Assembly: GCF_003991155.1 (NCBI RefSeq)
Contig: NZ_CP031293.1
Length of the DNA stretch: 64,000 bases
From: Escherichia coli
Lineage (GTDB): Bacteria; Pseudomonadota; Gammaproteobacteria; Enterobacterales; Enterobacteriaceae
Reading direction: 5' to 3' (one strand)
Every line of letters begins with the position of its first letter. Position 1 is the stretch's first letter. Of the stretch, positions 18,001-24,000 are shown one piece after another. A program made the position numbers.

Positions 18001-21000
18001 GGAATCGAAGAATGCTTCTATCATGTTGATATTAGTTTATTTTGTTTGGTTTGGTGAAATATGTACCCTCTTTTGTACCCGCAGTCCCTTTTGATATCGA
18101 AAGGGAATCAAACTCGGGGTCAGGCTGAGAGCACAGAAGGAAAGTGCCTGGCTATTATATCGTTAATTCTGTCAATCAGCTCCAGCCTTTTGAAAGTGAT
18201 GTGTGCAGATCCCTTCTTAAAGTATTTAATGATGAACATCTCATCTTCATAGCGTCCTTTACCCTGAACGGACTGTATGTGGTCATCCAGATTAATGGTG
18301 ATATTCCCTCGGTTGTCGGGGATCGGTTTACCGCTGAGCAGATGCAACATTCTTTCCAGGTCAGCCAGGCGATCTGCCTGCATTCCACTGATAAGATGAA
18401 ATCCCCACTGGTCCCATCTCACCAGATTGTTGACGATAATTTTACTGCCAAATTTACAGGGTGAGTTGGTTTTGTAATCCCAGCTCAGCCCTTTGAAGAC
18501 GTTGATCACTCCCCGTTCAAACACTTCATCTTTGTTCTGGTGCAGTTGTTCAAATGTGCTCAGAATGTTCGCTTCGCTGATTTCCGGAAAATTATCATAT
18601 TCCAGTGACCTGGACCTGACTGAGGTGGAGCAGATAACGTCCGTATTCTCGTTGACCACTTCCGGACGGGAGACTGTGATTTCAGACATAATCGATATTC
18701 CTTTTTGCAGATAAATGAAAACGCCAGCCGTGTTCAGGCTGGCGTCAGTGGAATGAAGTCTGGTGAGTGAGATGATGAGTGAGACTCACCGGTTCTGGTG
18801 CTGAAGCTGCAGTTGGCGCAGGGTACGGATATCCTCTCTGGCCTGTTCGATACAGGGCAACAGTGCTGCTGAATCCGTTTTATCCTCATTGTTGTCAAAG
18901 ATAATTCCCGATTCGCAGTCGATATTGTCCTGCAGCCACGCAATCAGAATATCCAGTGCGGTTTCCGTGGTTAATGATTTCATGTTGTTCCTGGTTACCA
19001 GTTGAAAGTGGGTAAACCCGGCAGGCATTCAGCGCTGGCATCCAGATGAATGAGACTGACGCCATAACGTCGGGTAAGTGTGATAACCAGACGACGGAAC
19101 GTTTTTGACAGCCCCAGGCGTTTAAGCCGCAGAACCGGATATGACCACGCATCGGTACGTAACAGATATCCGCTACCTGTGAAATGAATCCATTCTGATT
19201 CACCAACGTCACTGGTCTGATGCGACAGCGAGTACAGCCAGGCGTTATCCTTTTCCGTGATATGTGCGGTACTGCAGCGTATGCCGGCAAGGGTTGCAAA
19301 CGGTGGTAGTGTGCAGGTTGACTGTTGGTCGGATTCCTCCACCACGCGGAGTGAATAACCGTTTTCAGCGACCTTGTTAATCAGTTCAGTGAGATTAACA
19401 CCATCGACGTCAACGACAATTTGCCCCATGTTCAGTGCCTGCACATTAATTCTGTCGGCTTCCAGCATCAGGGAAAGTTTCATCGTTTCTCCGGATGCTT
19501 ACCCAGGGTAATGTTATTTACCGTTCTGTAATTGTCGCGGGTCATCAGGCCGGTCGCCCGGCGAGCCCGGAGGATATCAATACTGTTTATTAACTGAGAG
19601 CGGGGACAAGTGCTGAATCCCGGCTGGTCGGTACGCACCAGCGCGTATTTTTCCACGAGAAAATTCACCGCATCACACAGTGAAATGCCAGCTTCAATAT
19701 GCTGCTCAATCACACGTTCATCGGCGAACGGTGTGTCATTCAGTGTAAGGCCGTAATGCTGGCCCAGTAGTCGGGAGAGCAGAGTCTGCCAGATGGTGAC
19801 GGGAGACGGGCAGCTCGATGCCTCCCGTACGTGTGTATCGGGTAATGTTTTCATACTGAAGGTTTTCCTGATATGCAGAGATGAAAAATGGAAAAGTGGC
19901 GTGGTGAAAGCACCAGGCCGGAGCAGAAGGTTATTCCGGTGGTTTACTTTTTCGTTTCGGGCGTCGGATAAACAGCCAGATAAACGTAACCACCGCTACC
20001 GAGAGTGTCAGCTTTGCAGGTCAGACCTTTTGCATACAGCGTGACGGTATGCTGATGGCGGGGATTCAGTTCACCGCTGGTGAGCATGAGTTCCAGTTGT
20101 TTCATCAGCAGCGGAAAGGCCTGGTCCAGGTGGTACGCATCTGCATCGCTGAACAGGCCTCTGATACCGGCGCGGTCGGCAAGGTAATGCAGGCTGTTAC
20201 CCTCCTGCACCAGACGGGCGCCGAAACAGGGCGTCACGGTGCAGGGCAGCCCCCACCAGGGGCGGTCGTGATTGTCGTCGGGAAGCATTGTCCCGGAGAG
20301 TGCGTCTGACACGATAAAATCCTCACAGAAAATCGGTTAAGAATGGTTTAACGATGACAGGTCAGCCGGCGCGCAGACCGCCTTCGGTAAAGGTGTATTC
20401 GTTTATGAGCAGGGCCTCATCCACAGCGGCGTCTGAGCTCAGCCAGTCGTACTCGTTTTCCGGGTGACGGAACATCAGTTCAGGGTGACGCTCATCAGCC
20501 GGACATACGGGCCAAAACTGTCCTTACGACGTTCAGCAAACACGGCCAGCACACCGGGAATATCCTGCACTTCACGACCGGTATACGCTTCAGTGCTGCC
20601 GTGCCAGCGGTATTTGCCGGTACAGAACGGGAAAAGACGGGATGTCGGATGTTGTTGGTGAATACGCATGGCTTCACCACGAGTGATAATTTTCATAATG
20701 GGATACCTCTGAAGACAGAAGATAAAAGTGAAAACAGGTGTGATGTGGTTGTGACGGGTTAAAGCAGACCATGTTCGGCAAAGGAGAAAACCTGGTTGCC
20801 ACCGACTATCAGATGGTCCGGCACCCGGATATCCACCAGGCCCAGTGCCTGTACCAGACGTTCGGTGATAAGCCGGTCTGCCTTACTGGGTGTGACTTCA
20901 CCGGACGGGTGATTGTGCGCCAGCACCACGGCAGCGGCATTGTGGTACAGGGCGCGTTTAATCACTTCCCGGGGATGGACTTCCGTGCGGTTGATGGTGC

Positions 21001-24000
21001 CGGTGAAGAGGGTTTCACCGGCAATCAGCTGATTCTGGTTATTCAGATACAGCACCCGGAACTCTTCACGCTCCAGTCCCGCCATGTTCAGAATCAGCCA
21101 TTCCCGTGCCGCACGGGTGGAGGTGAAGGCCACACCGGGTTCATGAAGATGGCGGTCCAGGGTTTTCAGAGCCCGCAGAATGAGACTGCGCTCGCCGGGC
21201 GTCATTTCTCCGGGCAGAAAGGAAAGCTGCTGCATTGTCCCTGCCTCCATTCAGTCGATGATGCGCATAATGGCGCTGCATTCCGGATGCTGCAGGGCGT
21301 AATCCCGCAGCCGGTAATAATGGACCGTCATGGCATAACACTCCGTACGACAGGCGTGATGACTGTACGTCATCAGACAGGCAGCAATGCCAGCGGCTTC
21401 CGGGCTCATTTCAGCGCGGTTGCCGTTCATGGCATTGAACAGTACCCATGTTTCGTCATCATCGTCATCCGGTTCGGGGGCCATAAATGCACCGCCGTTG
21501 TTCAGAGTGTACAGATTCCAGATACCACCGCAGTAGTCTTCGCACAGACGGTCCATCCAGCCGAAAACACGGGGCTCCAGGGGCACCCACTGTGGAATGA
21601 GGCCAAAATGCTGCGGCCAGAAGCTGATGCGCTGTTCATCAGGGACTATGGTGGCAACCAACTGAGGCTGGTCATTCCCTGATGCAGCGGTTACGGAAAC
21701 AGAAGATGTGGTGGAATTATGTGAAATGGTTTTCATGAAATGACTCCTTAAAGGACAAATAAATGCGTGGTTTTCAGGGTAATGGCTGAATCAGCGCAGG
21801 CTCTCCAGCAGGGTTTCCGCCATCACCCACAATGCGCGGTTGAGCTTAATGTCAGTGTCAATGCTGTGAATGGCACGGGTATGGATACGTTTTCCTTTAG
21901 CGCTGCGACCTGAAATTCCGCCTTTCAGCATATTCTCCTGAATGGTCTGATAAGCACTCCACAGGTCCTTACCGTAATCCTCCCGGCGTCGTGGCGTCAG
22001 AATGTCGGCGGTGGTGACGGGCTGATGTTCGTCACCATAACGGTAAGTCAGTGCCGCCTGTGCCAGCGCCTGGCGTGCCGGTGGCGGCAGAATCAGCGAC
22101 TGCATGGCATCACGCTTTTCCTCAATCCGGTCAAACACGCCCACCACCTCGTAAGCCCCTTCAATGACTCTGTCCACCACATTTCCCCGGTGCGGAACAC
22201 GCACTTCCCCCAGAGACTGACCACAGACGCAGCCGTTCTGGCAGACGAACCTGAAGTAACCCGGCAGCATCTGGTAGCTGGAGGTACCGTCATGAGAGTT
22301 GAGCAGAATGATTTCAGGGACATGTTCTCCGGTTATCTCTCCGTTACGGCGCAGGCGCAGCATGTGTTTTGTGTATCCCCGACGGCCCGGGTCGCGCACA
22401 CGGGTCTGGCAGGCAAAGAATGGCTGGAAGCCTTCCCGCTGCAGACTTTCCAGTACGGTGATGGTGGGGATGTACGTATAGTTCTGGCTTCGGGACGTGT
22501 GTTTATCTTCCCCGAAAATCCCCGGCACATGGTGCATCAGCTCTTCATGTGTCAGCGGACGGTCACGGCGTATCTGGTTTGCAGCATAACCAAAACGACT
22601 GGCTAATCGCATACTTTGCTCCTTATCGGTGGTTAAGATTTACTGGTGCAATAAATGAAAAAAGCCGCGTCTCCCGGAGAAGACGCGGCCTGATGGATGA
22701 AATCAATGAGGTTTATTGTCTGAGAAGCCCTCCACTGGCGAGCCACGCATTAAGCTGTTTTCCGGCATCAGCTTCAGAGTTCCGACTGCGTCAGCGTCGC
22801 TGACCTTCCGCGTTGCGGATAACCCGACGGAAATGCATTCCCGGGTCATCCTGGATAAACACATTGCGGTAAGCGGTTATGACAGCAACCGCCTGCCCGT
22901 ATGAGAAAGATCCTTCAGCCAGGACATACTCTGTGTGTAACCCGGCATATCTGGTTTCTCCTGATAAATAGCCTCTGCCATACGTTGTGGCAGAGGCTGA
23001 AGCATGAAACTGACTTCAGGGATCAGTTAACATTTTTTCCGGAAACGGTAATCAGCAGTGGATGGTAGTCCTGGGGATCGAAAACCGATAACGGCAGACT
23101 GACACGATGGCCGTTACTTTCTTCAGTTGCTTTAATGATTTCGGTTGTGGCGACATTTTCCACGCACTCCGTTTCCAGAAATGCGTCTGTGGTTCGCGTG
23201 GCATTACTGTCACCAAAGGCTTCCGTTTCCATTTTTCTGGTCACCAGCGTCTGACCATATTTGTCTTTGAGTTGCAGAGTGATGGTGAGGGGGCCAAATC
23301 CTTCATCGTTTCCGCCATTATCCAGCCGGAACTGGTAAGCACAAATATTTCCCGGGAGCCATATCGTATCTGTATTGCGTATACTGATGTAACGTTGATC
23401 CTGTGCCCGGAGTGGGGCAGACCACGTTAACCCCAGAATGAAGGCGGTAATCATGCAGGTTTTGAACAGGTGAATCATGGTATTTACCTCTCTGAGTCAT
23501 GACGATGACACTGACAAATCAGGTGATAAAACGTAAAAGGCGCAGAATAGCCGTTATGCCGGTAACTCCGGGGGTAATGTTTCTTCCAGTCGGTTAACCA
23601 TATTGCCGAGATGGGATGCATCATATTCCATGACGGGGCGTTGCCTGATGATACTGACCACCAGTGGTTTGATTAACATGTTGGTCGCGGCCCGTTGTTG
23701 TATACCGGCAGCGAAAATGATCTCCAGAGCATTCTGATCGATAACACGGGCCAGATTCGCGTTCAGATTTTCAATCTCATGTCCGGTCAGCAGGAAACTG
23801 CCGGCAAGCCATGTCACCTGCTCCTGAATCATTGCCAGAATTTTGACGCGATCTTCTTCAACCAGCGCTCCGGCAATTTTTCCTGATACAGCGGAGGCAA
23901 TCATTCCCCCCAGAACACCGCCAACCACACGCCCTGTCAGTGCACCAAATGGTCCCAGTGGACTGAACAATATCCCGCCCGCCACTGACCCGACAGCACC

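Follow-up and report, generated by a model that had tools for sequence, protein, structure and literature searches.

A chromosomal island-tip module of Escherichia coli that resembles the leading regions of conjugative plasmids

Nine co-oriented open reading frames (ORFs) occupy the minus strand within positions 18120-22612 of a 64,000-nt stretch of Escherichia coli DNA (contig NZ_CP031293.1 of assembly GCF_003991155.1; hereafter the window), and they almost certainly constitute the accessory module typical of the distal end of CP4-44/CP4-57-type integrative islands in the Enterobacterales. Their order, DUF932, ArdB-type antirestriction protein, RadC/JAB protein, DUF987, the antitoxin CbeA, the toxin CbtA, DUF5983, DUF957 and DUF4942, is nearly certain, as is the reading of the last three (the tip genes) as genuine, selected protein-coding genes of the families named. 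The module is already known and annotated, and nothing about it is new as an object. What we report is a link: judged from sequence comparison, the only other large home of the tip families appears to be the first-transferred part of conjugative plasmids. The explanation we favor, with moderate confidence, is a known island distal module that carries a leading-region-like set of genes for establishment and stabilization.

Homologues of the C-terminal domain of DUF5983 were found on 2660 plasmids, 82% of them conjugative, stand-alone homologues of DUF4942 on 4511 plasmids (89% conjugative) and homologues of DUF957 on 1669 (92% conjugative). On the seven plasmids inspected, the DUF5983 and DUF4942 homologues lie between the origin of transfer (oriT) and psiB or ssb and are co-oriented toward oriT. 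On an IncF-type plasmid, an Enterobacter MOBP plasmid and a Serratia MOBP/MPF_I plasmid, DUF5983 is the last gene of an array that begins with psiB and psiA and ends directly before traM or a mobA-relaxase gene, and in two of these three it is immediately preceded by DUF932; its place on the plasmids is the oriT-proximal end of the leading region. DUF4942 stands beside nikA/nikB in IncI-gamma, amid JAB, Hha, antirestriction and ssb genes in pOXA-48 (IncL/M), and amid ssb, DUF905, psiB, psiA and antirestriction genes in an IncFII plasmid.

The resemblance takes in other genes of the module. Leading regions of IncF, IncI, IncL/M and MOBP plasmids have in common with the island DUF905, DUF932, ArdB/KlcA, JAB/RadC and toxin-antitoxin (TA) genes, together with the DUF5983 C-terminal domain and stand-alone DUF4942, and their genes are likewise co-oriented, pointing toward oriT. 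Such regions are enriched in anti-defense, methyltransferase, TA and uncharacterized genes (PMC11541004). The module has been located at the island end opposite the integrase (PMC12458937), and the F transfer apparatus accepts the island-encoded proteins YfjX, CbeA, YagB and YfjZ as substrates for translocation (PMC11288057). The two settings differ, however, in that the plasmid copies are only 32-41% identical to the island proteins, plasmid DUF5983 is without the enterobacterial N-terminal domain and uncoupled from CbtA, and the island module has no oriT, relaxase, ssb or psiB. A small DUF905 gene (22791-22922) adjoins the module upstream in the window, and a homologue of it lies between ssb and psiB in the leading region of an IncFII plasmid (L045), which extends the list of families common to the island and plasmid leading regions.

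All six upstream ORFs match Pfam families far above the curated cut-offs (table 1), with CbtA at 206.4 bits (cut-off 25) and CbeA at 176.2 bits (cut-off 27). DUF5983, which corresponds to a full-length YeeW, matches both an N-terminal domain (98.4 bits) and a C-terminal domain (76.7 bits; cut-off 27 for each), and DUF4942 scores 184.6 bits (cut-off 25) over model positions 32-189 only. Matches of this size are far beyond chance. Membership in DUF957 is suggested by an identical protein, WP_000839281.1, so named by RefSeq; the current copy of Pfam has no matching model, and precomputed Pfam hits were absent from all 120 DUF957 homologues listed. Positions 17400-22700 are 100% identical in more than a dozen E. 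coli chromosomes, including NZ_AP025675.1, with which the window is collinear, and in these RefSeq names the tip genes "DUF5983 family protein," "DUF957 domain-containing protein" and "DUF4942 domain-containing protein." The run of toxin, YeeW-like protein, DUF957, DUF4942 and IS110-family element is also recorded as L0007-L0012 in the locus of enterocyte effacement (LEE) of enterohemorrhagic E. coli and as orf53-59 in the Shigella resistance locus (SRL), where the trio itself is L0008-L0010 and orf54-56 (PMC6980539). The original prediction, made from the DNA alone, had described the order from DUF932 to the toxin as intact, and all six genes were recovered by Pfam on the same strand; the three further ORFs of 162, about 65 and 189 aa that it listed are present too. 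It had considered these three impossible to place, but the Pfam, RefSeq and LEE/SRL assignments just given place each of them.

The tip segment was matched in 5252 of 5426 complete E. coli genomes (about 97%), at a median of three places per genome and a maximum of 13. A wider scan with one genome per species yielded 22 loci, and at least 8 other genera of Enterobacterales keep the trio in its order. The full nine-gene order recurs in Escherichia albertii, Mixta, Yokenella, Edwardsiella, Tenebrionibacter, Yersinia and Hafnia, and with insertions in Lelliottia, the tip proteins of those genera being 53-69% identical to the ones in the window. In Enterobacter the upstream order is kept, DUF5983 is truncated, and DUF957 and DUF4942 were not found. 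With Enterobacter excepted, intact ORFs across the loci measure 162-164 aa for DUF5983, 64-67 aa for DUF957 and 277-286 aa for DUF4942. Variation in these genes falls mostly at third codon positions, and the Nei-Gojobori ratio of nonsynonymous to synonymous substitution (dN/dS) was 0.23 for Escherichia-level and 0.15 for cross-genus pairs in DUF5983, 0.17 and 0.20 in DUF957, and 0.16 and 0.08 in DUF4942; CbeA and CbtA gave 0.19 and 0.18. These values indicate that the tip trio is under purifying selection, like cbeA and cbtA. Lack of conservation or disrupted frames in related islands had been named beforehand as the outcome that would speak against the three ORFs; we found them conserved and intact, with low dN/dS.

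A permuted arrangement occurs in five Serratia and Edaphovirga loci (L023-L027), which carry ArdB, RadC, a 125-aa gene coupled to a gene for the DUF5983 C-terminal domain only, a 160-aa gene, then a CbtA-like and a CbeA-like gene (toxin before antitoxin), and DUF4942 next to a tRNA gene; DUF957 occurs in one of the five (L027). The scan also returned short contigs labelled Collinsella, Lachnospiraceae (metagenome-assembled genomes) and Arthrobacter (L007, L008, L010, L011 and L022) that bear the Escherichia module at 82-100% protein identity, and these copies are most likely the result of assembly contamination or mis-binning.

Because gene content and position are shared with the leading regions of conjugative plasmids, we infer a leading-region-like set, and the module could well be the chromosomal-island counterpart of such a region. 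Its genes would be made soon after the element enters a cell, where they would blunt restriction and other defenses and then lock the element in. A CbtA-family toxin would block FtsZ and MreB and a CbeA-family antitoxin would counteract it, as shown in the K-12 family and presumed for the window copy, and as a type IV TA pair the two would penalize loss of the element. The tip trio would act as establishment factors and not as parts of the toxin machinery. In the layout read from the sequence, DUF5983 is translationally coupled to cbtA through an ATGA overlap, DUF957 comes next with its own ribosome-binding site, and a conserved hairpin then sets off DUF4942, the terminal gene of the island family. 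A role for DUF4942 in DNA or restriction-modification interplay is suggested because the protein matches the N-terminal, noncatalytic half of phage DNA methyltransferases.

Several points weigh against this account. Establishment is a predicted function of the trio; the tip ORFs have no match in NCBIfam or PADLOC, their proteins have no significant sequence match in the PDB, and neither of the two that were modelled has a solved structural relative. Conjugative transfer of these islands and early expression of the module are likewise predicted, the leading-region position comes from the seven inspected plasmids, and a recent preprint takes the module as phage-like (PMC12458937). The tight coupling of DUF5983 to cbtA is also unexplained by a pure establishment role. 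A stronger version of the proposal would cover that coupling: the distal module would be a transplanted leading region whose tip (DUF4942, DUF957 and DUF5983) is the first part to enter a recipient on conjugative mobilization, the trio would be unrecognized establishment or anti-defense factors, and DUF5983 and DUF957 would tie CbtA expression to the entry program. We regard this version as unlikely.

The same coupling is the starting point of a different explanation, in which DUF5983 and DUF957 belong to the CbtA/CbeA system as additional parts (a modulator, an adaptor or a second antitoxin in fixed ratio) within a three- or four-gene TA operon. Translational coupling between cbtA and the first of the tip ORFs, noted in the original prediction, was borne out: the cbtA stop and the DUF5983 start overlap as ATGA at 19480-19483, and the overlap is retained in 14 loci. 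DUF957 follows within 11-31 nt, ahead of a conserved hairpin; the permuted Serratia and Edaphovirga loci still cluster the DUF5983 C-terminal domain and DUF4942 with the toxin-antitoxin pair (DUF957 only in L027, as above); a CbtA-DUF5983 fusion protein exists (P0002); and, according to a TA survey, almost every E. coli sequence type has DUF5983 as the partner downstream of CbtA (PMC10790755). DUF5983 is a small family (213 representatives at 50% clustering), and its remote relatives lie mostly on contigs too short for informative context. Against a part in the toxin system, CbtA/CbeA of K-12 functions as a TA pair despite a 64-aa yeeW stump (PMC5624674), and the YkfI/YafW and YpjF/YfjZ pairs are without such genes. 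Plasmid homologues of DUF5983 have DUF932 and oriT as neighbors and no CbtA in their vicinity, the Serratia C-terminal domain is coupled to a different, 125-aa gene, and in Lelliottia a 262-aa gene separates DUF5983 from the toxin. On balance, we consider this explanation doubtful.

It has also been proposed that the module is phage derived (PMC12458937), in which case it would be a "moron" operon of a phage-satellite-like island with tip genes for exploiting or interfering with a helper phage. DUF4942 does form part of phage DNA methyltransferases and is represented among PHROG families; for the C-terminal domain of DUF5983 there is a weak match to phrog_5003. In the 543-aa DNA methyltransferase of Pseudomonas phage phiPSA1 (gp22), DUF4942 occupies residues 87-268, and the island protein has it at residues 87-275, equally far from the N terminus; the island protein is without the methyltransferase domain, and the window allele in addition is without residues ~27-118. 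In Halomonas phage QHHSV-1, DUF4942 is stand-alone and lies beside three methylase genes. The counts point the other way, with DUF5983 found in one of 50,697 phage records (a 3.2-kb unannotated fragment) versus the 2660 plasmids, and DUF4942 in 36 phage records versus 4511 plasmids, and the neighborhood of the module is without capsid, terminase and replication genes. A phage origin of this kind therefore seems improbable to us.

The DUF4942 gene of the window departs from its family. The usual protein is about 281 aa long (homologues typically 280-282 aa, aligned to 86% of the query) and a full-length relative covers positions 1-189 of the Pfam model. Protein and nucleotide alignments of the window copy show an in-frame deletion of 276 nt, and compared with 27 full-length relatives it is missing 92 residues (~27-118 of the normal protein), so that it falls short of a complete domain and of the ~281-aa length. 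The lost part is an N-terminal helical region in an AlphaFold2 model of the full-length protein. The 189-aa ORF is present as originally described, and we reject it as a normal family member in favor of a deletion derivative; lacking 92 residues, it may be impaired. Most DUF4942 copies elsewhere carry the extra ~265-276 nt, and the deletion-type allele is itself widespread, with single-piece matches of at least 99% identity in 424 records.

Such a lesion raises the prospect that the tip of the window strain is decaying cargo without current function, its ORFs open only because the deletion is recent. The missing 92 residues include the first 31 positions of the Pfam domain, an IS110 fragment cuts off the end of the island, neither an att site nor a tRNA gene occurs in the window, and the K-12 and O55:H7 copies are clearly decayed. 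Set against this, the DUF5983 and DUF957 genes have their full length and match widespread alleles exactly, purifying selection acts on the family, and the DUF4942 deletion preserves the frame and is of the type present in the 424 records. We judge decay to be very improbable.

CP4-44 of K-12 carries yeeS, yeeT, cbeA, cbtA and a 64-aa yeeW in the same order as the window, with identities of 147/148 for YeeS, 72/73 for YeeT, 113/122 for CbeA and 109/124 for CbtA, in agreement with the initial description of a CP4-44-like distal module with an intact CbeA/CbtA pair, and its yeeW likewise overlaps cbtA by 4 nt. In contrast to the window, BLAST alignment shows that K-12 keeps the first ~50 DUF5983 codons, has lost ~470 bp, and resumes at the 3' end of DUF957 and the hairpin; it is without DUF4942 and has no DUF932 or antirestriction genes at that position. 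None of DUF5983, DUF957 and DUF4942 is found in CP4-57 or CP4-6 of K-12. The comparison with the CP4-44, CP4-57 and CP4-6 tips that had been suggested was consequently uninformative, offering a yeeW stump and a DUF957 remnant or no trio at all, and K-12 is a decayed reference of which the window holds the fuller form. Further counterparts are the LEE and SRL islands and AGI-3 of avian pathogenic E. coli (aec77-79), which have the same toxin-DUF5983-DUF957-DUF4942 run followed by an IS110-family element. They differ in their flanks (selC/LEE or serX, versus kps in the window), and in the O55:H7 LEE copy DUF4942 is broken by internal stops, where the window copy has its in-frame deletion.

The 65-aa DUF957 ORF appears to be a real gene, although it is missing from the current copy of Pfam, because it is under selection and conserved in length. 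It has 341 homologues. Its ATG, the start used by RefSeq (the longest ORF would be 80 aa), lies 11 nt past the DUF5983 stop and has its own AGGA ribosome-binding site. A 2026 preprint (bioRxiv 10.64898/2026.06.09.728211) describes an AntiFam "spurious" family, ANF00264, that follows or is fused to DUF5983 and may correspond to DUF957. The same preprint raises a programmed frameshift joining DUF5983 to the next ORF. We rejected this candidate, since the distance from the DUF5983 stop to the DUF957 ATG measures 11, 19, 25, 29 or 31 nt depending on genus, so that the relative frame differs among genera; this, together with a separate ribosome-binding site in front of each DUF957, argues against a frameshift. 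In the 200-aa "fused" DUF5983 proteins the tail is out of frame.

Between DUF957 and DUF4942 stands a G+C-rich hairpin with a T run (18720-18746), also found in eight other loci, with a compensatory change from C-G to T-A in Tenebrionibacter (L015). It is probably an intrinsic terminator or attenuator that ends a cbeA-cbtA-DUF5983-DUF957 unit. Only ~30 nt lie between it and the start of DUF4942, a spacing that suggests regulated read-through; expression of DUF4942 thus probably depends on transcription through the hairpin or on a promoter located upstream of it.

Within the pair itself, cbeA lies directly upstream of cbtA on the same strand with an 89-nt spacer. CbtA of K-12 needs F65 for binding to FtsZ and R15 for binding to MreB, and a laboratory R15C substitution abolishes MreB binding and keeps FtsZ binding (PMC5624674). 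The window CbtA has F65, and its codon 15 is Cys (EASSC15PSP) versus Arg15 in K-12; related CbtA alleles read R14-C15. It is possible that the natural Cys15 toxin of the window targets FtsZ only, an effect that here would play out in a differing sequence background. Further upstream, RefSeq starts the RadC-like gene at 21235, giving 158 aa. LfgA and LfgB are the current RefSeq names of yfjX and yfjY of K-12 CP4-57, and LfgB, a RadC-like JAB protein, has been reported as a protease that cleaves the antitoxin MqsA (PMC10846083); by analogy, the RadC-like product of the module may act on antitoxins.

The module is, near certainly, stranded inside a composite island of extraintestinal pathogenic E. 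coli that also bears kps capsule genes, Ag43 and a cdiBAI locus. Past DUF4942 comes a noncoding tail of ~170 nt, conserved at 71-91% identity in the loci of Yersinia, Hafnia, Yokenella and Lelliottia, and then an IS110 remnant that marks the junction with the kps locus, with kpsF, kpsE and the rest of the group 2 capsule locus beyond. The opposite flank carries DUF905, IrmA, a frameshifted gene, Ag43, a GTPase gene, sugar-utilization genes and the cdiBAI locus. ARAGORN found no tRNA genes in the 64-kb window, and no island integrase is annotated across it in the collinear record NZ_AP025675.1. The earlier statement that the tip faces an att site thus does not hold here, where the tip abuts the IS110 fragment and kpsF. 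For the island family the tip-at-tRNA picture is right, though not in the window: among 16 related loci, 6 have the 3' end of a tRNA 100-230 nt past the DUF4942 stop. A terminator-like hairpin, upstream of the DUF932 gene, closes the preceding DUF905 unit.

Some other features of the window were noted in passing. The ORFs of 440 and 435 aa at 23554-26077, which overlap at 24770-24876, are one frameshifted 2.5-kb gene in RefSeq, located between IrmA and Ag43 at the position of yeeR in K-12. A contact-dependent inhibition locus at 49003-60988 (cdiB, a 9.9-kb cdiA and a small immunity-like gene) explains the high G+C content and strong AT skew at 49-60 kb. The block of low G+C content (29-35%) at 2000-9000 is the serotype-specific region 2 of the kps locus, which holds GalE, a 760-aa hypothetical protein and a CatB-like O-acetyltransferase.

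Table 1. Features of the island-tip module and its immediate surroundings (window coordinates)
Feature	Coordinates	Strand	Length and family match
IS110-family transposase remnant, C-terminal fragment	17608-17790	-	RefSeq pseudogene in NZ_AP025675.1
Conserved noncoding island tail, terminator hairpin at 17953-17979	17948-18118	-	
DUF4942 protein (L0010; Aec79), deletion allele	18120-18689	-	189 aa; Pfam PF13708, E=2e-54
G+C-rich hairpin and T run between DUF957 and DUF4942	18720-18746	-	probable intrinsic terminator/attenuator
DUF957 protein (L0009; Aec78)	18786-18983	-	65 aa; RefSeq WP_000839281.1
DUF5983 protein (full-length YeeW; L0008; Aec77)	18995-19483	-	162 aa; Pfam PF25638, E=2e-28, and PF19419, E=2e-21
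CbtA/YeeV-family toxin	19480-19854	-	124 aa; Pfam PF06755 CbtA_toxin, E=1e-61
CbeA/YeeU-family type IV antitoxin, GTG start	19944-20312	-	122 aa; Pfam PF06154 CbeA_antitoxin, E=2e-52
DUF987 protein (YeeT type)	20475-20696	-	73 aa; Pfam PF06174, E=8e-39
RadC-like JAB protein (YeeS type)	20759-21250	-	longest ORF 163 aa; Pfam PF04002, E=8e-45
Antirestriction protein, ArdB/KlcA type (YfjX/LfgA type)	21251-21736	-	161 aa; Pfam PF03230 Antirestrict, E=2e-37
DUF932 protein (YafZ/YfjQ type)	21791-22612	-	273 aa; Pfam PF06067, E=8e-52; RefSeq WP_001531953.1
Terminator-like hairpin upstream of the DUF932 gene	22662-22691	-	13-bp stem and T run

Hundreds of annotated E. coli genomes share this DNA, and for years the gene run has figured in lists of LEE and SRL genes. 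What it does point to is a gap around three selected genes that about 97% of complete E. coli genomes carry, most often more than once, and that also lie beside oriT on thousands of clinically important conjugative plasmids. Looking ahead, the point of interest is how these ubiquitous genes of the island tip are linked to the oriT-proximal genes of conjugative plasmids. If the tip genes aid the establishment of mobile DNA in new hosts, they would have a bearing on the spread of virulence and resistance elements.

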